Shown here: piece by piece, positions 6,089 to 34,874 of the stretch
How the letters are laid out: every line of letters begins with the position of its first letter
Position numbering within the stretch: position 1 is the stretch's first letter
From: Escherichia phage vB_EcoM_PhAPEC2
Length of the DNA stretch: 64,000 bases
Reading direction: 5' to 3' (one strand)
Sequence record: NC_024794.1
Notes under the pieces: model-generated
What the model was told of the DNA's origin: nothing
The model's input: the letters and a program-made list of their open reading frames with translations, nothing else
Databases searched by the model: none
Translations under genes and position numbers: made by a program

Positions 6089-6324
6089 ATGTATTCTCTT
6101 CGAATGAAGTCCTCTACATATTTTAACATGTCATCTCTATCAGCAAAATATTCATCCAGTTCTGCATACATAACAACACCTGGCGCGTACTCACAGGTAA
6201 CATACATTGTTCCAAAGAAACGAGGAGTTGATTCCTCGTAATTCTCGGTCCATTCAACGATACCAATATAACCGTCACCAATACTAAATTCATGACGATG
6301 GATTTCATAATCAGTCTTCGTCAT
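6085..6324 (-). CDS. Hypothetical protein (T4 46.1 position)
   Basis: ORF coupled to gene 46; start ATG 6324 has GAGGA SD (track start 6339 overlaps it). Confidence 0.5.
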   Translation of the reverse strand: MTKTDYEIHRHEFSIGDGYIGIVEWTENYEESTPRFFGTMYVTCEYAPGVVMYAELDEYFADRDDMLKYVEDFIRREYI

Positions 6325-11752: not shown

Positions 11753-11968
11753 TTAAGCCTTTTTATCAAGAACAGAATTCAGTTTATTAGTAATTTTGTC
11801 CAAACGTTCATTGAATTCGCTGGAGGATAAACCCTTTTCTGGAGAAATTAAACTAATCACGAAAAATACACCAGTAAAAGGAATAAGAAAAATAGCTCCA
11901 ACTGCCATAAACAAAAAGAACGTTACAGTTGTAAGAAAATCAGCTAAACCTTTACGAAATTTGTACAT
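11753..11968 (-). CDS. Hypothetical small membrane protein
   Basis: 71 aa with central hydrophobic segment (FFLFMAVGAIFLIPFTGVFFVISLI). Confidence 0.5.
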   Translation of the reverse strand: MYKFRKGLADFLTTVTFFLFMAVGAIFLIPFTGVFFVISLISPEKGLSSSEFNERLDKITNKLNSVLDKKA

Positions 11969-20990: not shown

Positions 20991-21992
20991 TTATTTCAGT
21001 AAAGTTACTTCAGAGATTTCCTCCCAACCATCCTTATCAGTTGAAATAAAATCTGCTACATAAAGAGCCGTACGTAATGATACATTGCGAAGACGAGATA
21101 CGTTAGCCTTCATCCAGGACAATGCTTTGTACGTTTCAGCATCAGTCAAGCCACGTTTCTGCATCATGTCAGTAGATAATATTACATCTTCAACTCGAAC
21201 CATAATCTCTTCATTAGAGTGTACTCCAAGGTCGAGATACACTGAACGAGATACTAAAGCTTGAAGGTGTGGAGCAAGTTTCGAACCGCGTTCTAACTCT
21301 TTATCGATATCAACGTTTGTAATGAAAACGATAGTACCTTCAAACTCAAATTCTTTATCAATACCCTTATCATCGAGATAAGATGACGCAGTGCTCCAAC
21401 AAACTTTGCGTTTATCTCCGGTATCTAATGCTGCTTTAAGAAGGTTCAAGATGTCCATATCTGAGAATACGTCAACGTCGTCGATTAAGAGAACGCTGTC
21501 TGCATCACGGTTGAGCCAAAGTTGTTCGTAAAGGCCAATACCAGAGATTTTACCATTAATGCTTTTGTATTTGATGAAACCGTTATCATTAGCGTTATTA
21601 AGTGCTTTATCCAGAGAATACGTCTTACCAATACCAGCTGCACCTGAAATAATGAGTGAACGAATTTTGCCATCGATAATGCCATTCGTCATCATGTTCA
21701 TTACTTTAAAGCGTTTGTTGATACGAGTTTTCATATCTTCAGTGCTTTCAACAACTGCAACTGGTGACGTCTCAACTCCTTCCATTACGATGTCTGATTT
21801 GAAGACCCATACTCCACGTTCAGAACCATCGATCATAACGAAAATTTTACCATCACCTAAGTGGGAACATTCAGGATTAAGCTTTGCCGGGAACCATGTC
21901 TTTGTGGCAACATAAGAACCAGAGATTTCGTTATTACGATAGATACCTTTTTTGATTTGAACGTTGAACATTTTATTCTCCAATTTACTCAT
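20991..21992 (-). CDS. P-loop NTPase of unknown function
   Basis: 333 aa; Walker A GAAGIGKT and Walker B-like VLLIDDVD; own promoter cassette upstream. Confidence 0.6.
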   Translation of the reverse strand: MSKLENKMFNVQIKKGIYRNNEISGSYVATKTWFPAKLNPECSHLGDGKIFVMIDGSERGVWVFKSDIVMEGVETSPVAVVESTEDMKTRINKRFKVMNMMTNGIIDGKIRSLIISGAAGIGKTYSLDKALNNANDNGFIKYKSINGKISGIGLYEQLWLNRDADSVLLIDDVDVFSDMDILNLLKAALDTGDKRKVCWSTASSYLDDKGIDKEFEFEGTIVFITNVDIDKELERGSKLAPHLQALVSRSVYLDLGVHSNEEIMVRVEDVILSTDMMQKRGLTDAETYKALSWMKANVSRLRNVSLRTALYVADFISTDKDGWEEISEVTLLK

Positions 21993-23832: not shown

Positions 23833-24366
23833 TTATTTCAAAGTTGGTATAATAGAATCAAGATAAGCTTTAAGAGCAACTGCTTCATCTTTGTCTAATG
23901 TAATGATATGTTGACGAAGGTCATCAATTTGACGAATAACTACGACATCACCATCTTCATAAGAAGGATTAACTCCTAGGACTGTTGTATAGTCAGGGCG
24001 GTCCTGATTTGTAATAAAAGCATTACGGCATTTAGCCCATTGAAGTTTGGCCTTTTTGGCTGTTTCAGATTCCATTAATTCTTTCACCTTAGTGACGAAT
24101 GTTTTCCAATTATTAATAGAAAAACATTCATCTTCGGTTTCGATATTGGCCGCATTGTAAAGACCAGGATAAAAACGAACTTGGAGGTCTTCACCAATGT
24201 TAATTACCTCTCGACGACGTCCAGACTGATTGAGTTTCAAAATCTTGTCCAGTTCCATAGGAAGAATAGTAGCAGCATCATCTTCTTGTGTCAGAACGTA
24301 CACATAACCACGTTTTTCAATACATAAATCACCGAACAGCTCGGTTGTTTCAATTACGGTTTTCAT
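23833..24366 (-). CDS. Hypothetical protein (about 177 aa)
   Basis: ORF; likely start MKTVIETTEL... at 24366. Confidence 0.5.
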   Translation of the reverse strand: MKTVIETTELFGDLCIEKRGYVYVLTQEDDAATILPMELDKILKLNQSGRRREVINIGEDLQVRFYPGLYNAANIETEDECFSINNWKTFVTKVKELMESETAKKAKLQWAKCRNAFITNQDRPDYTTVLGVNPSYEDGDVVVIRQIDDLRQHIITLDKDEAVALKAYLDSIIPTLK

Positions 24367-24472
24367 ATTATTCACCAATTAAAGTTTCAACAAAATTCAC
24401 CAAAGCATTCTGGCAAGCGTCAACCTGATTTCTATAAAAATTAAATAATATCCATCAATTTATTAGCTTGTT

Positions 24473-24589
24473 CACGGGTCATTTTACCATACTCGTTTCA
24501 ATAAGATTCACTATGCCGTTTACCATGTTATAAGTAAACATCGGATAATTGTATTGTACTACAACATAAGCGATAAGCAAAAGTTTCAT
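24473..24589 (-). CDS. Hypothetical small hydrophobic protein (38 aa)
   Basis: Hand-found ORF MKLLLIAYVVVQYNYPMF... with SD GGAGAA, directly downstream of the promoter cassette at 24608-24646. Confidence 0.3.
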
Positions 24590-24607
24590 TTTGTTCTCCA
24601 TTTGTTT

Positions 24608-24646
24608 TGGTAGGATTACTATATCATAGTCCTACCAAGACGTAAA
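24608..24646 (-). promoter_or_regulatory. PeSL-like early promoter cassette (GTTTAC-N18-TATAGT with dyad GGTAGGACT/AGTCCTACC)
   Basis: Minus GTTTACGTCTTGGTAGGACTATGATATAGTAATCCTACCAAAAC. Confidence 0.4.
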
Positions 24647-24862
24647 CTACCGATTATGTTTTAAAATACTATAAAGAGCTTCTACTTGGCTTGCATCCAG
24701 GTAAATAACATCATCATCTTGCTCAATGGAAATTCCGCCAGTATTACCTTCAACGAAATTACATTCGCATACTTCAACAGTGCGATATACATCACCAACT
24801 GGATGCTCAGGCTCCAGAACAATCACACCATCTTCAGAACAACCGCTTGGGTCATATAACAT
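24647..24862 (-). CDS. Hypothetical small Cys-containing protein (paralog B of MLYD pair)
   Basis: 71 aa from ATG 24862 (MLYDPSGCSEDGVIVLEPE...CECNF...), SD GAGGAAA. Confidence 0.45.
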   Translation of the reverse strand: MLYDPSGCSEDGVIVLEPEHPVGDVYRTVEVCECNFVEGNTGGISIEQDDDVIYLDASQVEALYSILKHNR

Positions 24863-24974
24863 TACAGTTTCCTCGCTAACCATGAAAAGAATAAACCAAT
24901 TAAAACAGGTCCTACAGCCATTGTTAACCAAGCCCAAGGTTCAAGATAATAAATCATCTCATGCTCCTGTGCCA

Positions 24975-25118
24975 TCAGTTTCTTGGTTCACGTTTAAAAA
25001 TTTCATCATGCATTGATTGACAACCAACACAATATATCACCACCATATCATCTTCAGCGCTTTCAGGTAAAAGTTCAAGTACGCCGTCTTCAGATTTTCC
25101 AGTATAATCGTAAAGCAT
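24975..25118 (-). CDS. Hypothetical small Cys-containing protein (paralog A of MLYD pair)
   Basis: 47 aa hand-translated (MLYDYTGKSEDGVLELLPE...CVGCQ...), SD GAGGA; below ORF-track cutoff. Confidence 0.4.
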   Translation of the reverse strand: MLYDYTGKSEDGVLELLPESAEDDMVVIYCVGCQSMHDEIFKREPRN

Positions 25119-25125
25119 AATATCC

Positions 25126-25305
25126 TCACATAATCTCGTTAACATACATTTGCAATTCGGTGTGAGCTTCGGCCATCTTTTTCATAGCTCTGTTAATGTC
25201 GATGTCTCCATCTTCGCAACCATGAGCATTTTCCCAATCAGATACCGCATTAGCGTACTCTTCAATCAAAAACATTAACTTAGAAATTTTTTCTTTACGT
25301 GACAT
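25126..25305 (-). CDS. Hypothetical protein (59 aa)
   Basis: ATG 25305 with SD GAGGAG (MSRKEKISKLMFLIEEYANAVSD...). Confidence 0.45.
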   Translation of the reverse strand: MSRKEKISKLMFLIEEYANAVSDWENAHGCEDGDIDINRAMKKMAEAHTELQMYVNEIM

Positions 25306-25327
25306 AACGTTCTCCTCTAGTAAGTAA

Positions 25328-25361
25328 AGACTACTATAACACAACCTGTGGAGAAGTAAAC
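25328..25361 (-). promoter_or_regulatory. PeSL-like early promoter cassette (GTTTAC-N17-TATAGT)
   Basis: Minus GTTTACTTCTCCACAGGTTGTGTTATAGTAGTC. Confidence 0.45.
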
Positions 25362-25371
25362 TGCTAAATGC

Positions 25372-25399
25372 AAAAAAGCCCCAACCTTTCGGAAGGGGC
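25372..25399 (-). terminator. Rho-independent terminator after rI (GAAA-loop hairpin + U-run)
   Basis: Minus GCCCCUUCCGAAAGGUUGGGGC followed by UUUUUU; same hairpin recurs at 40795 and 41342. Confidence 0.6.
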
Positions 25400-25406
25400 T
25401 AGTAAA

Positions 25407-25709
25407 TTAGATAGATGTAGGCTCTAATTTTATTTTCATGAACTCGGCAAATTGTCTGGCAGTTTTTATGCCTTGTTCCTGGCATTCAAATGCATCATCA
25501 CAGGGGCTATTTTTGTAATGCTTTGCCATATAGTTATAAAATTTTTCAGAATTCTCAACATTTTGAATTTCGAACAAAGTATATACGTTTTTAATCCCTG
25601 ATTCCATAAAGTTATCAAAGTACGGGTCAACATATGCAGTGCCAACAATAGGAGTCGTTGCTGCAAAAAACCCCAGCATCGCCACAATGGCTATCGCTCT
25701 TAAGGCCAT
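25407..25709 (-). CDS. rI: Lysis inhibition regulator RI (antiholin)
   Basis: 100 aa; signal-anchor N-terminus and ...YVDPYFDNFMESGIKNVYTLFE...SPCDDAFECQEQG... resembling T4 RI. Confidence 0.85.
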   Translation of the reverse strand: MALRAIAIVAMLGFFAATTPIVGTAYVDPYFDNFMESGIKNVYTLFEIQNVENSEKFYNYMAKHYKNSPCDDAFECQEQGIKTARQFAEFMKIKLEPTSI

Positions 25710-25721
25710 ATAGGCCTCCTG

Positions 25722-25934
25722 TTAATTTTGGCCAGTATTTATTTTTCGCCTTTGGACGGCCTTAACATCTGCGAGGTATTTTTCCAGCTTGCGCTTGCGT
25801 GTATAATCAGCTTTAGAACCAGTTTGACGGATATCCTCGTTTAAATGAGAAATAGAATGTCCTAATTCTCTTCGGATTTCATCCAATTGGGTTACAGTAA
25901 GATTACGAAGTTGTCTTTCGTTTAATTGCTGCAT
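25722..25934 (-). CDS. Hypothetical protein between tk and rI
   Basis: 70-aa ORF. Confidence 0.5.
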
Positions 25935-25961
25935 ATATACCTCTTGGTTAGATATTAGTAT

Positions 25962-26543
25962 TTATAACAACCCTGTCAAATCATTCCAATGCTTCCGGCA
26001 TAATGACACATATCTATCGGTATCACCAATTTCAATTTGACTGCCATCTGTAATTGGAAGTCCGTCTTCCGTGACTCTAGCTACCATTGTGGCCTTTTTA
26101 CCACAATGACAGACACCTTTAAGTTCAACAAGCTTATCGGCAATAGCCATTAATGCTTGAGAACCTTCAAATAGATTACCTTTAAAATCTGTTCGTAGAC
26201 CATATGCCATTACCGGCACATTGTATACGTCAACAATACGACTAAGTTGATACACCTTTTCAGTAGTTAAGAACTGAGCTTCGTCAACAAATACACAGTG
26301 AATATCCTTTTGCGCTGCAGCCCATTTATAGAATTCAAAGATATCCATGTCTTTTGTAATTATATTGGCATCCTGACGAATACCAATACGAGAGACTATT
26401 TCACCTTTTGAATCACGAGTATCAATAGCCGGTTTAAGAACTAATACACCCATGCCACGTTCTTTATAGTTGTGTGCGGCAGTAAGTAATGAAGCAGACT
26501 TACCAGCGTTCATAGCGGCATATGTAAAAATTAAACTAGCCAT
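25962..26543 (-). CDS. tk: Thymidine kinase
   Basis: 193 aa; P-loop MNAGKS, VFVDEAQF, C-terminal Zn motif CHCG...CRKH. Confidence 0.92.
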   Translation of the reverse strand: MASLIFTYAAMNAGKSASLLTAAHNYKERGMGVLVLKPAIDTRDSKGEIVSRIGIRQDANIITKDMDIFEFYKWAAAQKDIHCVFVDEAQFLTTEKVYQLSRIVDVYNVPVMAYGLRTDFKGNLFEGSQALMAIADKLVELKGVCHCGKKATMVARVTEDGLPITDGSQIEIGDTDRYVSLCRKHWNDLTGLL

Positions 26544-26552
26544 AAGAGTCCC

Positions 26553-26735
26553 TTATAGTGAATTCACGTAGTCAATGAGTTCTTGTTCTTTCCTGTCAAA
26601 TGATTCCATCAATGCTTGATATTCTTCATCTGTTAAAGGAGCATATTCATCGTACGCATTGGTGGCTGCTTGCTCATCCAATAGGTCATGGATAAGTTCG
26701 AACAGTTTAGTTTTCTCTTCTTTAGTCAATTTCAT
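26553..26735 (-). CDS. Hypothetical acidic protein
   Basis: 60-aa ORF coupled to downstream gene. Confidence 0.45.
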   Translation of the reverse strand: MKLTKEEKTKLFELIHDLLDEQAATNAYDEYAPLTDEEYQALMESFDRKEQELIDYVNSL

Positions 26736-27226
26736 TTAGGTTCCCAATCGACAATCACAATTTCTAGTTTAGTGGAATACGTATCTAAAATCTCTTCAAT
26801 GACATCCCAGTTTCCACCACCAATACCTGCACCAATTCTTGGCATATAAATTACAGGCTTTGTTATCTTATTCTTTCCGAATTCATTTAATTCTATTATA
26901 CAATTCATTAAAGCAGAGTACTCAAAATTAGGTCCAGGCTCAAACTGTGTATAAAGATTAAAGCAATAAGCTTTATGGGTCTTAAAATATTTTTCATAAA
27001 CCGAATAAGTCCCGAGTTTAGACTCGTCTCCGAATTCGGTTTGAAGTTTATCGGCTTCTAAAATTTTTGGATAAGCCTTTGCTAATTGTCCTGCCACACC
27101 AGCGCCCATTGTATGAAAACAATTACACCCATGAGCAATATTATTACCTTTAGAAAACAGGGCGACAATATCGCCCTTGATATAGTTTTTAATCACTTGC
27201 TGCAAGTCCTCTAGTATAAGAGTCAA
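26732..27226 (-). CDS. Macro-domain-like protein (putative ADP-ribose binding/processing)
   Basis: 164 aa; glycine-rich motifs HGCNCFHTMGAGVAGQL and RIGAGIGGG resembling macro-domain phosphate-binding loops. Confidence 0.5.
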   Translation of the reverse strand: MTLILEDLQQVIKNYIKGDIVALFSKGNNIAHGCNCFHTMGAGVAGQLAKAYPKILEADKLQTEFGDESKLGTYSVYEKYFKTHKAYCFNLYTQFEPGPNFEYSALMNCIIELNEFGKNKITKPVIYMPRIGAGIGGGNWDVIEEILDTYSTKLEIVIVDWEPK

Positions 27227-27536
27227 CTAGGCGGTCTACCATAGAATTGCATGCTGCCTTATCTTTAGGTTCCGCCACCGAGCATTCTAATATTTGCCAT
27301 TTTTTATGATATCGTTTAATTAAGGTAGACGCCTTGAACCTACTAGACGCCCCATCTTTTTCTCCGTCTTTATACGCATATAATAATTTTTGTGAAAAAT
27401 CTACTTTACACTCTTGACTTTTACCACAATAATCAGACGCCGTTCTGTTTGTATACTCCGTTACATCAGTATATGTAGTATTAGCAAAAGCGTTAAATGA
27501 AACCAAGCCAACTATTAAAGCCAACATTTTGGTCAT
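27189..27536 (-). CDS. Secreted Cys-rich protein (signal peptide)
   Basis: 115 aa; N-terminal MTKMLALIVGLVSFNAFA signal-peptide-like segment, 4 Cys. Confidence 0.5.
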   Translation of the reverse strand: MTKMLALIVGLVSFNAFANTTYTDVTEYTNRTASDYCGKSQECKVDFSQKLLYAYKDGEKDGASSRFKASTLIKRYHKKWQILECSVAEPKDKAACNSMVDRLVDSYTRGLAASD

Positions 27537-28075
27537 TCTTTTATTTCCAGTAGTTTATTTGATTTAAGGTAATTAGCCTTTTCTAGGACTTCAGAAGCAT
27601 ATTTACTTCCAGCACTTGTCTTCCATCCTGCATTATATGAGGATATAGCTTTTCTTATATCCCCATTATGTATATTTAACCAATAAGAAAATTCGATATA
27701 AGCCCATCTGGCTGAATTAGACCGCTTAGATAGCATTTTCTTAATTTGGGCATCAGTCATATTATAACCAAGCTGGTTAATTCTTGCCCTCATTGTTGGT
27801 AGATAATTTTGGAACATTCCATACGCATGGTGACCTTTCTTATCTTTAAGATTAATACCGGCAGATGATTCCTGCCATAGTATTGCGGCCATTATGTATC
27901 CAAGTCCTTTCTTATGCATATTTTCATGCGTTTTAAATTTTCCGTCCTTAGAAAACTGTTCCCCAAACTGATAAGCATAATTCAAGTTATCGAGTTGGAC
28001 ATTACTAAAAGTATGCTCGGAGCTATGTGCTGATAATGAAAGAGCAAATAGACCAGCGAGTAGTGCTTTTCTCAT
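27533..28075 (-). CDS. Secreted lytic transglycosylase (SLT)-like protein
   Basis: 180 aa; signal peptide MRKALLAGLFALSLSAHS; SLT-like motifs WQESS, GMFQ, YNAG. Confidence 0.5.
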   Translation of the reverse strand: MRKALLAGLFALSLSAHSSEHTFSNVQLDNLNYAYQFGEQFSKDGKFKTHENMHKKGLGYIMAAILWQESSAGINLKDKKGHHAYGMFQNYLPTMRARINQLGYNMTDAQIKKMLSKRSNSARWAYIEFSYWLNIHNGDIRKAISSYNAGWKTSAGSKYASEVLEKANYLKSNKLLEIKE

Positions 28076-28083
28076 GTTTACCT

Positions 28084-28542
28084 CTAGATTTTAATCACTG
28101 CTTTAGAAGCTTTTCCTGGTAGTCGTTTATTGTTAATAATAGCCATTCTGCATTGAAGAGTCTTCATTTTGAATGCTGGATTTTCGCGACAAACTGTAAG
28201 TCCTAACCAAAGATTTCCATCAGTTATTTCTAAACGGCCTGGGCGATATTCGACACCTTCGACAAAATCTTCATCAACATCTGGACGTGCCGGCATTGAT
28301 AAAAATTCTGTAACTTCTTTAACATGATTTTTTACTTTACGAAATAATTCAAAAACGTAATTCTCATCTATTTCTCTTTGGATGGCACGATCTAAGAGAT
28401 GTTGAGAATACTTGATATGAAAGCCTGGTAGTCCAAGAGACTTTGCAGCATCTTTTATACCGGCATTGATTTGACGAAACTCCGTTTCAAAGATTCGACG
28501 GAGTTTATTGCGGCGGATAAAAACGTCTGAATTGATAGTCAT
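28084..28542 (-). CDS. regB: RegB site-specific endoribonuclease
   Basis: 152 aa; MTINSDVFIRRNKLRR...YSQHLLDRAIQREIDE...CRMAIINNKRLPGKASKAVIK matches T4 RegB as recalled. Confidence 0.9.
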   Translation of the reverse strand: MTINSDVFIRRNKLRRIFETEFRQINAGIKDAAKSLGLPGFHIKYSQHLLDRAIQREIDENYVFELFRKVKNHVKEVTEFLSMPARPDVDEDFVEGVEYRPGRLEITDGNLWLGLTVCRENPAFKMKTLQCRMAIINNKRLPGKASKAVIKI

Positions 28543-28561
28543 TTTGATTTCTCCTCTAGTT

Positions 28562-28599
28562 GACAGGTCTATAGTAACACAACTAGAGGAGAAGTAAAC
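28562..28599 (-). promoter_or_regulatory. PeSL-like early promoter cassette with 12-bp dyad (CTCCTCTAGTTG/CAACTAGAGGAG) covering the regB SD
   Basis: Minus GTTTACTTCTCCTCTAGTTGTGTTACTATAGACCTGTCAACTAGAGGAG. Confidence 0.45.
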
Positions 28600-28603
28600 T
28601 ACT

Positions 28604-28819
28604 TTATTGATAAAATGGAGTTAAAGCCCAAGATTCTTTAGATACCATATTGGCGAAATGCCTCATCTCTTCGATTTGGCGACGACGCTGGTCAGCATAG
28701 TCTTCTTCGCCTTCTTCCTTACAATCTTCAAGGTCTTCTTCAAGATACTTTAAGTATTCACTACAAATTTTGTTGACCTTTTCTTGAAAGTCCAATAACC
28801 CAGTAATACTAGAAGCCAT
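28604..28819 (-). CDS. Hypothetical acidic protein
   Basis: 71-aa ORF (T4 vs.x interval). Confidence 0.5.
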   Translation of the reverse strand: MASSITGLLDFQEKVNKICSEYLKYLEEDLEDCKEEGEEDYADQRRRQIEEMRHFANMVSKESWALTPFYQ

Positions 28820-29064
28820 TAGTATTTTTCCTCAGGTCGAAATACCGCGCGACAAGCCCACATACTAGCTTCCTTTAGACGCTCTTTAGCGCAGTTAAGT
28901 TGGGACAAAGCCGTCAGAGCTTCAGGAGTATTTGCTGATAATGCTTCTTCTGCCAGGGCGTCCAGAATAAGTCCTAAACGAACTTCGGCATCTTTAATAG
29001 CGTTCACTTTACCGATTTTATCATCGGTATGTGGCTTGTAGCCTTTGATGTCTTCAATCGACAT
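28819..29064 (-). CDS. Hypothetical small all-helical protein
   Basis: 81 aa from ATG 29064 (MSIEDIKGYKPHTDDKIGKVNAIKDAEVRLGLILDALAEEAL...), SD GAGGAAA. Confidence 0.45.
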   Translation of the reverse strand: MSIEDIKGYKPHTDDKIGKVNAIKDAEVRLGLILDALAEEALSANTPEALTALSQLNCAKERLKEASMWACRAVFRPEEKY

Positions 29065-29278
29065 AAGGAATTTCCTCATCGGTGGCAAGGTCATATTCGA
29101 CCAATTGGATAGGCTCATTAATACCATATCCACGTACAGTGATATCGGTTGTCGGATATTTTCCAGTAATATCACCCGTTCTAAATGCTTCAATGAATGA
29201 TTGCTCGCCTGAGCAACTAAACCAGGCGGCAAAACATTTTAAAACATCTTCAGACCCTTCTATAACCAATTTAGCCAT
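29054..29278 (-). CDS. Hypothetical protein
   Basis: 74-aa ORF, ATG verified at 29278. Confidence 0.45.
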   Translation of the reverse strand: MAKLVIEGSEDVLKCFAAWFSCSGEQSFIEAFRTGDITGKYPTTDITVRGYGINEPIQLVEYDLATDEEIPYVD

Positions 29279-29640
29279 TATAGACTCTCAGTAAAGGTAC
29301 GAGCGATAACGTCGCGCTGTTGTTCCGGAGTCAGAGAGTTAAAGCGAACTGCATATCCGGATACACGGATGGTCAGCTGCGGATATTTTTCCGGATGCTT
29401 AACTGCATCTTCCAGAGTTTCACGACGCAGAACGTTAACGTTCAGGTGTTGACCACCTTCAATTTTAACTTTAGGTTGATGTTCAATTTCAATTTCACGA
29501 GCATGCAAACCGTAGAAAATTTCTGGGTCTACAATAGCGTCTTCTTTAAAAGTCTTAGAGACAATAATCCGGGCTTGAGTACCGTCTTCAAAATAAATAG
29601 TGCCTTTATGTGCACCTTCAAGAATTTGATATGCTTTCAT
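29278..29640 (-). CDS. Hypothetical protein (120 aa)
   Basis: ORF in tk-regB-denV interval. Confidence 0.5.
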
Positions 29641-29646
29641 ATAACC

Positions 29647-29955
29647 TCAATTAGAAAATAAATTTATCCAAGATTTTTCTTTAATCAAAAATGGGTCGGA
29701 ATTAAACGCCATTAAACTTTGAGTGATTAATCCCTTAAATGGCCCATCAATAAATTCCATTTTGAAATGCGGAATACTAGTCATCATCCGTGCATTAGGA
29801 GCAGTACAAAGAACCTGCTGCCCGGCGAACGGACCTTTAGTCAAACGATATCGTTTAGGTTTAAAATGGTAAATCTCGTAATTTTCTACAAGAGCCCTTT
29901 TATTGCATACTGGGCTGTTATAACAATACTCAAAAACTTCAATAGTGGTCATCAT
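29647..29955 (-). CDS. Hypothetical protein (102 aa)
   Basis: ORF. Confidence 0.5.
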   Translation of the reverse strand: MMTTIEVFEYCYNSPVCNKRALVENYEIYHFKPKRYRLTKGPFAGQQVLCTAPNARMMTSIPHFKMEFIDGPFKGLITQSLMAFNSDPFLIKEKSWINLFSN

Positions 29956-30491
29956 TGCATTCCAATCACAAAAAATTGAGGACGAGCATTACCGCCGATG
30001 CAATATTTGCTTTTGCAGCAGTGCTGTACTGTTTTAATGTGGACATTGTAAATCTTATCCATATCGGGAGCTTTAATAGGCTCGTCAATTATATACAGAA
30101 TACGAGAAAGCGTTAATCCACGGAATTTAGAACCTTCATTGCCAATAAAACTACGAACAGAATCAGTAAATAAACGGAATCGAATATCATCGCTAGAATA
30201 ACGAGAAAATTCTTTTTCAATGTTGCCAGCAGAAATTTTAGCATAAGCTGAAGTATTAGAAAGAACAATAACTGTTCCACCGTCGTGCAGCCAATTAACA
30301 GCAAAATTAGTTACTGCGGTCGATTTACCTGATTGTCTGCCGCCGTCTAAACGAAGTGTACAGTACTGCTTGAGTACGTCTTCAAATGGTGGGACATAAC
30401 CATTCTTACAAATTTCTTCTACTCTAGCATCAGAATGGTGTGTAAAAGCATTCATCAGGGATAGATAAGGTCCGGTTAAAAATGTTCTCAT
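29952..30491 (-). CDS. P-loop NTPase-like protein
   Basis: 179 aa; Walker A GGRQSGKST. Confidence 0.5.
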   Translation of the reverse strand: MRTFLTGPYLSLMNAFTHHSDARVEEICKNGYVPPFEDVLKQYCTLRLDGGRQSGKSTAVTNFAVNWLHDGGTVIVLSNTSAYAKISAGNIEKEFSRYSSDDIRFRLFTDSVRSFIGNEGSKFRGLTLSRILYIIDEPIKAPDMDKIYNVHIKTVQHCCKSKYCIGGNARPQFFVIGMQ

Positions 30492-30670
30492 TTAGTTTCT
30501 CTTTTAGATTGGGGCCATTCCGTGGCGCATGAATTGTCCATTTCTGTATTTACCCATTACCGCACTTGGGCTCGACCTTATTACAGGTTGGCGGGAATCC
30601 CTCATAGAATCATGAGGTCCAGGTTGTTCCCATATTATTTAAATGTAAATAGGTCTAAGTATTAGCTTTA

Positions 30671-31249
30671 TTAATTACCACGGGCCGCATTAGCAACGGC
30701 GTAAGCATACTGAACATTAGCGTCCTTAAACGTACCTTTAGAGGTATCTATTTCTGCCTTAAAGCCGCCTTTAGCCATAACATCGGCAAATTCTTTACGG
30801 AAAGCCATTGCATCAAGACCTTTCCATGATGATTTATGCTTGGCAAATTCAAGACCGGCGTAGTTGACAGCTTTAGCCAATTTATTATCAATGACCCATT
30901 TACCGGCTTTAGGCACAAACTTCGGGCCTTTTTGTTTAGAGAACAGTTTTAAATTCCAGCGACGAAGATCACTATCGGCTTTAACAAAAGCTGCGTCTAA
31001 GTTACTAGCAACAACATCTTCAATATGAGCAAATTTAAGTCCGTCAACTTCAATATTTAGATCGTTACGCCAACGTAGTCCTTCCCAAGCGAAGGCTTTA
31101 AAATCAGAAGCTTTTGTGGCTAGATATCGTTCAAGTGGAGCAGTTTTAGGGTCAAAGCCGTTTCCGCCACGATAATTCCACTCGTCCTTATTAATGCCTT
31201 GAGCTTTTCCTGCAAAGGCCTCGGCGATAAATTCTTTATACGTTTTCAT
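30671..31249 (-). CDS. ipIII: Internal head protein, IPIII-like
   Basis: 192 aa; N-terminal capsid-targeting sequence MKTYKEFIAE; basic, Ala/Lys-rich. Confidence 0.7.
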   Translation of the reverse strand: MKTYKEFIAEAFAGKAQGINKDEWNYRGGNGFDPKTAPLERYLATKASDFKAFAWEGLRWRNDLNIEVDGLKFAHIEDVVASNLDAAFVKADSDLRRWNLKLFSKQKGPKFVPKAGKWVIDNKLAKAVNYAGLEFAKHKSSWKGLDAMAFRKEFADVMAKGGFKAEIDTSKGTFKDANVQYAYAVANAARGN

Positions 31250-34568: not shown

Positions 34569-34874
34569 TTATTTTCCTCGACATTCTTTAATGAAATTTT
34601 CTAGATTGGTAGATTCAATAGCTTTTTTACGAGCTTCTGCGTGTTCTTCTTCAGACAATTTACGTTTATAATTGACCCAGACATTATGGTCTAAACCAGT
34701 TGTGGCATATAATATCAAAGCTCCGACGAATAATAAAAACGGTGATAAAAATATACAACCAGGAACACCATCCATACTGTAAGCCTTTTGTAATACGGCA
34801 ACAGAAAGAGCTGCGTAAAAAAGCGATGCAAATATTGTAAAAAGACCGATTCGGTTGGTTTCGCCTAATTTCAT
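34569..34874 (-). CDS. Membrane protein, FIKECR-tail family member
   Basis: 101 aa; two hydrophobic segments; C-terminal ...LENFIKECRGK. Confidence 0.55.
   Translation of the reverse strand: MKLGETNRIGLFTIFASLFYAALSVAVLQKAYSMDGVPGCIFLSPFLLFVGALILYATTGLDHNVWVNYKRKLSEEEHAEARKKAIESTNLENFIKECRGK

Follow-up and report, generated by a model that had tools for sequence, protein, structure and literature searches.

The window, a stretch of 64,000 nucleotides from Escherichia phage vB_EcoM_PhAPEC2 (NC_024794.1), shares 98-99% nucleotide identity with Mosigvirus genomes. Between tk and regB, it contains four open reading frames, all on the minus strand and closely packed with overlapping ends, at the positions that the initial annotation had given for them (26553..26735, 26732..27226, 27189..27536 and 27533..28075). 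The T4 gene order (regB, vs.1, vs, tk.4, tk.2, tk) is kept in the window, and judging by sequence the region is the regB-vs.1-vs-tk.4-tk.2-tk early-gene block of a Mosigvirus, i.e. T4-like, phage. Its features are:

28084..28542, minus strand: regB, T4-type endoribonuclease, upstream flank (Pfam REGB_T4, 5.5e-69; phrog_1323)
27533..28075, minus strand: vs.1 orthologue, 180 aa, SLT/GH23-like and putatively exported (predicted fold and motifs)
27189..27536, minus strand: vs orthologue, 115 aa, "valyl-tRNA synthetase modifier" (phrog_1256, 1.5e-35; 67% identity to T4 Vs)
26732..27196, minus strand: tk.4/adfM orthologue, stand-alone ALC1-like macro domain, 154 aa (Pfam Macro, AF2, Foldseek)
26553..26735, minus strand: tk.2 orthologue, 60 aa, DUF7438 (Pfam DUF7438, 1.5e-16; phrog_653)
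25962..26543, minus strand: tk, thymidine kinase, downstream flank (Pfam TK, 7.3e-57)

The 60-residue frame has its best local alignment score with T4 Tk.2 (146, compared to 64 for Tk.1 and 20 for Tk.3). The overlap between vs and vs.1 is 4 nt long (ATGA). A search of positions 24000..31000 against Rfam gave no match. Promoter-like sites are rarer than in shuffled sequence and terminator-like sites are all intragenic, which leaves no case for a separate transcription unit. Database labels for these genes are often wrong: the tk.4 gene appears truncated or as a "phosphatase", Vs as a "valyl-tRNA synthetase" and Vs.1 as an "endoribonuclease". The initial annotation missed that three of the genes have T4 names (tk.4, vs and vs.1).

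For the tk.4 orthologue, the stop end of the frame 26732..27226 stands, but its mechanical start at TTG 27226 (164 aa) does not. The start is most likely GTG 27196 (154 aa), because the N-terminus MIKNYIKGD then matches those of T4 Tk.4 (MIVKYIKGD) and the aligned homologues; TTG 27226 was rejected. With the GTG start, identity to T4 Tk.4 is 83% over the full length, beginning at residue 1. The vs-tk.4-...-tk synteny is kept in T4 and three other genera, and homologues of the macro family are found in about 2800 phage records covering many hosts. The protein has no signal peptide.

The suspicion that this protein resembles macro domains was well founded, since both of the approaches proposed for checking it, profile search and structure prediction, identify a genuine macro domain. 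The Pfam Macro profile (PF01661) matches with 28.1 bits (gathering score 22, E 2.1e-6) over profile positions 2-117 of 118. A PDB search with the family profile finds BT1257 (8e-17), TARG1 (1.7e-16), SCO6735 (5.6e-14) and DarG (1e-12), and the full-length matches, which include Poa1p, span 1e-11 to 1e-17. The AF2 model (pLDDT 95, pTM 0.90) has the three-layer alpha/beta/alpha macro fold. Foldseek returns 141 PDB matches at E<=1e-3, and the leading ones, at TM 0.68-0.80, are the same proteins as in the profile search (Poa1p, 5e-10, TM 0.80; DarG, 5.6e-8, TM 0.75; TARG1, BT1257 and SCO6735); the top matches also include serine hydrolases that were designed on a macro-domain scaffold.

The two glycine-rich loops that gave rise to the macro-domain proposal are indeed present (HTMGAGVAGQL at 27083..27115, RIGAGIGGG at 26813..26839). 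When aligned to TARG1, MGAGVA corresponds to MGAGIA and RIGAGIGG to RIGCGLD. In all 43 sequences compared, the loop residues G33, A35, I121, G122 and G124 are unchanged, and the phage protein has all 16 family-invariant residues. One of the invariant residues, Gln84 (encoded at 26945..26947), aligns with the catalytic lysine of TARG1 (K84) and DarG (K80), and the position of TARG1 D125 is occupied by glycine. A lysine mechanism of the DarG type was therefore rejected for the phage protein.

Both neighbours begin with signal-peptide-like N-termini of the n/h/c type, as originally described. We judged export by simple rules (a positive n-region, an uncharged hydrophobic h-region at least 10 residues long, and small side chains at -3 and -1), and a crude signal-peptide filter lets pass only 7 of the window's 156 ATG-initiated frames with 60 aa or more, among them Vs, Vs.1 and the known rI. 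By these rules, a putative signal peptide is seen in the two proteins of the window and in every Vs and Vs.1 homologue that we examined, with the exception of the Vs of VR25. The envelope remodelling or superinfection exclusion proposed for the two proteins in the initial annotation is a hypothetical role.

In Vs.1, the predicted signal peptide comprises residues 1-18 (28022..28075; MRK-ALLAGLFALSL-SAHS/S), with a Kyte-Doolittle maximum of 2.36 in an 11-residue window, and the model is of low confidence over its first 20 residues (pLDDT 66-71). The motifs that had been noted are all found, namely ES (E69-S70), GMFQ (86-89) and YNAG (147-150), and they are (nearly) invariant in the family: E69, S71, G86, Q89, Y147, N148 and G150 do not vary among 37 sequences. 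The proposed SLT profile search gave a mixed answer. With Pfam SLT (PF01464), Vs.1 stays below the gathering score (18.8 bits, cut-off 21.3, E 1.3e-3), but several of its relatives carry a precomputed PF01464 match. PDB sequence searches, with Vs.1 as a single sequence or as a 37-sequence profile, gave no SLT match, whereas structure prediction yields a lysozyme-like GH23 fold. Because of the sub-threshold Pfam score and the lack of a PDB sequence match, the assignment rests on the predicted fold together with the motifs. We infer that Vs.1 is a Sec-exported periplasmic protein resembling SLT/GH23 lytic transglycosylases, whose one putative catalytic residue is Glu69 (27869..27871).

The second neighbour had been called Cys-rich, which overstates the case, as it has 4 Cys (positions 37, 43, 85 and 96) in 115 residues. 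By its sequence, the protein is Vs, which has been annotated for decades as a valyl-tRNA synthetase modifier. We found no match for it in the Pfam, NCBIfam and PADLOC libraries searched, and PDB searches with Vs and with the Vs profile gave only insignificant matches to helical proteins. A HMMER search of 1.84 billion representative proteins returned 7 clusters, all of them apparently phage-type Vs proteins or fragments except for one weak match (E 1e-3). More divergent Vs-like proteins were located by gene context and hhalign.

For the location of Vs, the indications compete. Its predicted signal peptide covers residues 1-18 (27483..27536; MTK-MLALIVGLVSF-NAFA/N, with an AFA/N site), and the Kyte-Doolittle maximum is 2.69 (11-residue window). 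Mutants in vs have been linked to growth on hosts with temperature-sensitive valS, and such a link implies a role within the cell. According to the literature, Vs binds the host valyl-tRNA ligase (PMC8076793; HIDEN-SEQ preprint), and we regard it as a serious, if tentative, possibility that the hydrophobic N-terminus is no export signal at all and that Vs acts in the cytoplasm as classically described. However, His-tagged Vs, with the tag at the N-terminus, was insoluble (PMC8076793). An n/h/c-type N-terminus occurs in 10 of 10 Vs-family sequences (from phages of E. coli, Klebsiella, Enterobacter, Yersinia, Citrobacter and Acinetobacter), with a small-x-small (AxA-like) site in all but VR25, where isoleucine occupies position -3 (IAS/V). 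The mass reported for purified tau factor is about 10 kDa, and that predicted for mature Vs is about 10.9-11.2 kDa. The N-terminus varies in sequence and the mature part is conserved. The four cysteines are invariant in Vs of the window and 8 aligned homologues, and the unaligned Vs of CfP1 likewise has four in the mature part; the pattern of cysteines and signal peptide is kept in 6 close and 3 divergent homologues (hhalign Prob 97.5%, E 6e-12). Moreover, vs adjoins the gene for the putatively exported Vs.1, or lies one gene away from it, in all 9 loci in which we located it, in phages ranging from those of E. coli to those of Acinetobacter. These observations speak against a cytoplasmic Vs and give it the appearance of a Sec-exported protein. 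Together with the similar behaviour of T4 transposon insertions in vs and in vs.1, they would fit a Sec-exported, disulfide-bonded periplasmic protein that forms a conserved pair with Vs.1, for example as a partner or regulator in the way that Ivy, PliG and Spackle are for lysozymes, a scenario that we nevertheless consider rather unlikely. If it were correct, the valyl-tRNA synthetase story would be incomplete, or the assignment of the reading frame due for revisiting. In this analysis, possible novelty lies only in the apparent export of Vs and in its pairing with Vs.1 at every locus.

The macro-domain finding is correct and also already known, since the T4 counterpart has recently been tied to protection against DarTG2. 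T4 tk.4 was the single significant gene in a DarTG2 screen, a clean knockout sensitizes T4 to DarTG2, and the gene was named adfM (anti-DarT factor Macrodomain) in a 2025 preprint, whose support is a genetic phenotype and not an enzyme activity (bioRxiv 10.1101/2025.11.20.689424). On a plain K-12 host, T4 tk.4 is non-essential. AdfM of PhiKZ strips DarT2-made ADP-ribose off TNTC DNA in vitro (PMC13309987). SCO6735, for which Gln85 is essential, cleaves ADP-ribosylated thymidine of DNA and protects cells against DarT (PMC9411070). The suggestion that the protein reverses ADP-ribosylation and should be tried on DarTG hosts thus agrees with the phenotype published later for T4 Tk.4/AdfM (bioRxiv 10.1101/2025.11.20.689424).

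Together, the data make it very probable that the macro protein is the T4 Tk.4/AdfM orthologue with anti-DarT2 DNA de-ADP-ribosylation activity, that Vs.1 is a putatively exported protein of the SLT/GH23 type, and that Vs is the valyl-tRNA synthetase modifier. By analogy with the T4 and PhiKZ relatives, the Mosigvirus copy would have the same activity. In the model that we propose, the macro protein would bind the ADP-ribose that host DarT2 sets on thymidine of single-stranded phage DNA and would then hydrolyze the ADP-ribose-thymidine bond, restoring replicable DNA. The active site would be of the SCO6735 type, with glutamine replacing the DarG/TARG1 lysine, plus an HGxN motif; as the catalytic lysine of DarG and TARG1 is missing, the mechanism is drawn by analogy with SCO6735. 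The protein would act akin to an "orphan antitoxin". The Mosigvirus copy is confirmatory in that the result for T4 AdfM and DarTG2 should extend to Mosigvirus phages, and Gln84 points to an active site of the AdfM family that is SCO6735-like rather than based on the DarG lysine.

Other roles for the macro domain have to be weighed against anti-DarT2 activity. A substrate other than DarT2-modified DNA (protein modified by host or phage ADP-ribosyltransferases, ADP-ribosylated RNA, O-acetyl-ADP-ribose or ADP-ribose-1''-phosphate) is suggested by the top structural match, Poa1p, which is an ADP-ribose-1''-phosphate phosphatase, and by the labels "phosphatase" in PHROG and "O-acetyl-ADP-ribose deacetylase" at JGI. 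TARG1 and SCO6735 also have proteins as substrates (PMC9411070), and the spread over so many phage records may exceed what pressure from DarTG2 alone would explain. The labels, however, are inherited domain names and not assayed functions, and DarTG2 singled out tk.4, which T4 can dispense with on plain K-12. The T4 ADP-ribosyltransferases Alt, ModA and ModB modify arginine, and we know of no ALC1-like macrodomain that cleaves arginine-linked ADP-ribose; nor, to our knowledge, is ADP-ribose-1''-phosphate a product of T4-type RNA repair. We therefore consider another substrate improbable. Even less recommends the further suggestion in the initial annotation, that NAD-derived immune signals are degraded (or else sequestered) by the protein; the cyclic ADP-ribose isomers of Thoeris would be an example. 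Nothing in our analysis backs this idea apart from the fact that macro domains bind ADP-ribose-like ligands; the nearest characterized relatives (TARG1, DarG, SCO6735 and Poa1p) hydrolyze ADP-ribose conjugates and not cyclic ADP-ribose, and DarTG2 is the only conditional T4 tk.4 phenotype in the text of the preprint (bioRxiv 10.1101/2025.11.20.689424), making such a role highly improbable. It is scarcely credible either that the macro protein joins the two signal-peptide proteins in a single functional module, even though the genes are adjacent with overlapping ends in the window, T4, VR25, AmPh_EK29 and IME523. There is no vs or vs.1 near the macro gene in Acinetobacter phage Meroveus and Felixounavirus Alf5 (where the macro domain is part of a 261-aa protein), and in phiR1-RT and KpnM6E1 other genes lie between the macro gene and vs. 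The macro protein, moreover, lacks a signal peptide, and T4 mutants differ in phenotype, with tk.4 required on DarTG2 and vs mutants showing a fitness defect in M9 medium; insertion counts are about 10-fold higher in tk.4 than in vs and vs.1. We rejected the three-gene module in favor of lineage-specific synteny.

Among known systems, T4 Tk.4/AdfM is the closest to the macro protein, with the same N-terminus, nearly the same length (155 aa in T4, 154 here) and the same placement right after vs and before tk. The differences are that T4 is a Tequatrovirus and the phage here a Mosigvirus, that the T4 gene starts with ATG instead of GTG, and that loop 2 reads GKG in T4 and GGG here. SCO6735 of Streptomyces coelicolor and BT1257 are, like the phage protein, ALC1-like, with glutamine at the DarG K80/TARG1 K84 position, an HxxN motif and profile matches over the full length; unlike it, they are bacterial proteins of the housekeeping or SOS type and not devoted to phage counter-defence, and identity is about 22-26%. 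DarG of DarTG2 (T. aquaticus 5m31/5m3e, M. tuberculosis 5m3i) shares its macrodomain class (Foldseek TM 0.72-0.77, profile E 1e-11 to 1e-12) and presumed substrate with the phage protein. The latter, however, ends at residue 154, lacks the C-terminal DarT-binding domain of DarG and has Gln84, as SCO6735 has Gln85, in place of the catalytic lysine. The NCBIfam equivalog for DarG (NF048014) scores 32.4 bits, far from its cut-off of 250, over positions 4-148 of 338, the PADLOC DarG model matches in the macrodomain part only (6e-9, positions 4-145 of 329), and no darT lies beside the macro gene, whose neighbours are vs and tk.2. PhiKZ gp104 (AdfM) is likewise a stand-alone phage ADP-ribosylglycohydrolase and "orphan antitoxin" that undoes DarT marks on DNA, but is imported into the phage nucleus (PMC13309987). 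T4 AdfN, another stand-alone phage "orphan antitoxin" against DNA ADP-ribosylation by DarT, differs in its NADAR fold and in acting on guanine-linked ADP-ribose from DarT1 (PMC11825919). Vs.1 differs from family 1 lytic transglycosylases/GH23 (Slt70, MltC, MltE, MltF and EtgA) in consisting of one small domain (about 160 residues; 12-20% identity to them), and in being the product of an early phage gene and not a host autolysin, virion enzyme or endolysin. Vs, finally, shows no material difference from T4 Vs (tau factor), which is equal in length, lies between vs.1 and tk.4 and has an apparent export signal as well.

Between tk and regB, the initial annotation had placed a macro-domain-like protein and two signal-peptide proteins, one Cys-rich and the other SLT-like. 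Each sequence feature that it quoted is found at the position given, and Pfam matches bear out the two flanking genes.

Genes from regB to tk in transcription order
28542..28084, minus strand: regB, 152 aa (Pfam REGB_T4, 5.5e-69)
28075..27533, minus strand: 180-aa ORF, assigned to vs.1
27536..27189, minus strand: 115-aa ORF, assigned to vs
27226..26732, minus strand: macro ORF as called mechanically, 164 aa
26735..26553, minus strand: 60-aa ORF, assigned to tk.2
26543..25962, minus strand: tk, 193 aa (Pfam TK, 7e-57)

Neighbouring genes abut or overlap, with ATGA overlaps at vs.1/vs and between the macro gene and the 60-aa ORF, and an 8-nt overlap between the end of vs and the GTG start of the macro gene. 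We found no convincing internal promoters or terminators in the regB-tk stretch, and an Rfam search of the region gave 0 matches. Many Escherichia phages of the genus Mosigvirus share 98-99% identity with this 2.7-kb stretch, and 149 records cover at least 80% of it. The annotated order in T4 is regB, vs.1, vs, tk.4, tk.3, tk.2, tk.1, tk, and the T4 order is also kept in Gaprivervirus VR25, Marfavirus AmPh_EK29 and Kanagawavirus IME523. On the strength of the Mosigvirus identity and the T4 gene order, we assign the four ORFs as orthologues of T4 vs.1, vs, tk.4 and tk.2; the alignment score of the 60-aa ORF is 146 for Tk.2 versus 64 for Tk.1. Most close relatives, such as ST2, UGJNEcP1 and AV110, carry about 415 bp extra at the tk.4/tk.2 junction (window about 26732..26735; positions 833-1248 of the compared locus L015), comprising two small ORFs of 68 and 70 aa that are missing from the window, as from 348Ecol098PP, JM10 and FL18.

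The 115-aa protein, described initially as Cys-rich, matches phrog_1256 ("valyl tRNA synthetase modifier", 1.5e-35) and shares 67% identity with T4 Vs, and by this homology it is Vs. Its N-terminus is of the textbook n/h/c type (MTK / MLALIVGLVSF / NAFA|N), a predicted and conserved Sec-type signal peptide, and the window protein and eight aligned homologues, six of them close, all keep the four Cys. The predicted mature mass is 10.9-11.2 kDa; the purified tau factor is about 10 kDa. Direct searches show a very narrow family, with 794 phage records and no more than 7 clusters in 1.84 billion representative proteins; database records frequently mislabel Vs as "valyl-tRNA synthetase". If Vs is Sec-exported and probably disulfide-bonded, this would be hard to reconcile with binding to a cytoplasmic synthetase. 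The searchable literature, which does not extend to the classical Vs papers, yielded no discussion of Vs export versus ValRS binding. This apparent paradox is the sole unexplained point of the locus.

The SLT-like motifs noted in the 180-aa protein are present, and all 37 members of the family alignment keep these of their residues: E69 and S71 (WQESS), G86, Q89 and N90 (GMFQN), and Y147, N148 and G150 (SYNAG). Taken by itself, the sequence makes a weak case: the Pfam SLT score (18.8 bits) falls under the cut-off of 21.3, a marginal match reported as early as 2006 (PMC1524935), and a PDB search with the family profile gave nothing significant. The AF2 model is good (pLDDT 90.4), with low confidence for the first 20 residues, as expected of a signal peptide. 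The aligned members shown have a hydrophobic leader at the N-terminus, in one case after a longer annotated extension. Model, motifs and leaders together make a small, predicted exported lytic transglycosylase of the family 1 type the best reading of Vs.1. Published T4 data show vs.1 to be dispensable. Vs.1 clusters are misnamed "endoribonuclease" or "site-specific RNA endonuclease" in UniRef/GenBank, names apparently transferred from regB.

A crude signal-peptide filter passes 7 of the 156 window ATG-ORFs of at least 60 aa, including the rI antiholin orthologue (25407..25709, minus strand, 100 aa), whose hydrophobic N-terminus forms a signal or anchor segment, and the ORFs at 6123..6308, 11753..11968, 21559..21915 and 34569..34874. 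Elsewhere, the C-terminal end of a 120-aa ORF (29278..29640, minus strand) reads ...RVSGYAVRF..., and the near-identical phage 348Ecol098PP has a counterpart carrying the annotation autonomous glycyl radical cofactor (GrcA-like; T4 vs.6).

In all nine loci where vs was found, it lies beside or near vs.1. Four of the Vs-like proteins are divergent.

Divergent Vs-like proteins (compared locus:positions within it)
L007:1586-1906, Yersinia phiR1-RT: directly downstream of vs.1, 106 aa, predicted cleavage VKA|D
L011:1992-2312, Klebsiella KpnM6E1: directly downstream of vs.1, 106 aa, predicted cleavage ANA|E
L009:1959-2285, Acinetobacter Mokit: directly downstream of vs.1, 108 aa, predicted cleavage TSA|S
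L012:2210-2539, Citrobacter CfP1: one gene further on from vs.1, 109 aa, predicted cleavage AYA|D

The first three were detected only via gene context and hhalign, which aligned all four Cys with the Vs profile (Prob 97.5%, E 6e-12); the CfP1 protein, outside the hhalign set, was assigned by eye and annotation. In the same three phages, a third signal-peptide protein (132-145 aa; L007:1903-2340, L009:2282-2707, L011:2309-2707) with mature N-terminus W..(L)PGYPE follows 3' of Vs, making a run of three predicted exported proteins; it is missing from the window and T4.

The T4 HIDEN-SEQ supplement (Extended Data Table 6, sheet S8; bioRxiv 10.1101/2025.11.20.689424) also sets vs and vs.1 apart. 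The strongest T4 hit for M9 versus LB medium is vs (mean reads 26.6 in LB, 5.0 in M9; log2FC -2.19), and vs.1 falls from 22.6 to 11.9 (log2FC -0.87, p 0.0055). Mean reads in LB and M9 are about 290 and 275 for tk.4, and about 180 and 400 for regB. Relative to tk.4, regB and vs.3, vs and vs.1 each carry about 10-fold fewer insertions; the two behave alike and unlike their neighbours, and both fall in M9. Such behaviour would be expected if vs and vs.1 share a function, or if vs.1 insertions have polar effects on vs.

The macro gene, vs and vs.1 are not one system. Their families differ in size (about 2800, 800 and 2060 phage records, respectively), the macro gene occurs in Acinetobacter phage Meroveus without vs or vs.1 nearby, and in phiR1-RT and KpnM6E1 other genes lie between it and vs. 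Moreover, the macro protein is without a signal peptide, the T4 phenotype of tk.4 is unlike that of vs and vs.1, and in Felixounavirus the macro domain is part of a larger protein. In Felixounavirus Alf5 (L008:2483-3268) this is a 261-aa protein, with the Tk.4-like domain N-terminal and about 100 aa of uncharacterised sequence added at the C-terminus.

The macro gene almost certainly starts at GTG 27196, judging by where alignments begin, by an N-terminus (MIKNYIKGD) like that of T4 Tk.4 (MIVKYIKGD), and by the homologues shown in a 43-sequence alignment, which start within 1-2 residues of this position. TTG 27226 was rejected, as T4 and all more distant phages align only from residue 11 of the mechanical ORF. 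Relatives' records (L002:2618-2995, L015:1245-1625) shorten the CDS to 125-126 aa, with the Met inside HTMGAG taken as the start and the domain's first strands lost.

At 154 aa, the protein passes the Pfam Macro cut-off of 22 with a score of 28.1 bits. Searching PDB with the 43-sequence family profile gave full-length matches to BT1257 (E 8e-17), TARG1 (1.7e-16), SCO6735 (5.6e-14), Poa1p (5e-13) and the DarG proteins of M. tuberculosis (1.3e-12) and T. aquaticus (5.7e-11). The AF2 model is confident (pLDDT 95, pTM 0.90), and its top Foldseek matches, Poa1p (TM 0.80), DarG (0.75-0.77) and TARG1 (about 0.7), are among the same proteins. The proposed likeness to macro folds is thus found, and the protein is an ALC1-like macrodomain.

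Reversal of ADP-ribosylation and a test on DarTG hosts, both put forward initially, have essentially been published since for the T4 orthologue, Tk.4/AdfM. The A1pp/macro match of T4 tk.4 was noted in 2006 (PMC1524935), and published T4 data show the gene to be dispensable on plain K-12. A November 2025 HIDEN-SEQ preprint (bioRxiv 10.1101/2025.11.20.689424) found tk.4 to be the single significant T4 gene required on a DarTG2 host, sensitised T4 to DarTG2 by clean knockout, aligned the predicted Tk.4 structure with the DarG macrodomain, and named the gene adfM. In 2026, PhiKZ AdfM was reported in Cell Reports to strip ADP-ribose from DarT2-modified TNTC DNA in vitro (PMC13309987). Given 83% identity to T4 AdfM, with every family-invariant residue kept, the best inference is that the window protein would have the same function. 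The initial observation was accurate and its main interpretation right, and all of its content maps to named T4 genes.

For the orthologue, the proposed function is already in print as a DarTG2 phenotype in T4, with enzyme activity shown in the more distant relatives PhiKZ AdfM and SCO6735. The window protein does not qualify as a DarG: its match to the PADLOC and NCBIfam DarG models is confined to their N-terminal macrodomain part (NCBIfam 32 bits versus a cut-off of 250), and, unlike DarG, it has neither a C-terminal DarT-binding domain nor a darT neighbour. In the profile alignment, the catalytic Lys84 of TARG1 lies opposite the family-invariant Gln84, and TARG1 Asp125 opposite a Gly. SCO6735 likewise has a glutamine, Gln85, at the DarG K80 / TARG1 K84 position, and near-identical residue offsets suggest that the HGxN motif (H22, N25) is probably the counterpart of SCO6735 H24 and N27. 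SCO6735 is efficient at taking ADP-ribose off thymidine in DNA and can rescue cells from DarT, and Q85A/E substitution abolishes its activity (PMC9411070).
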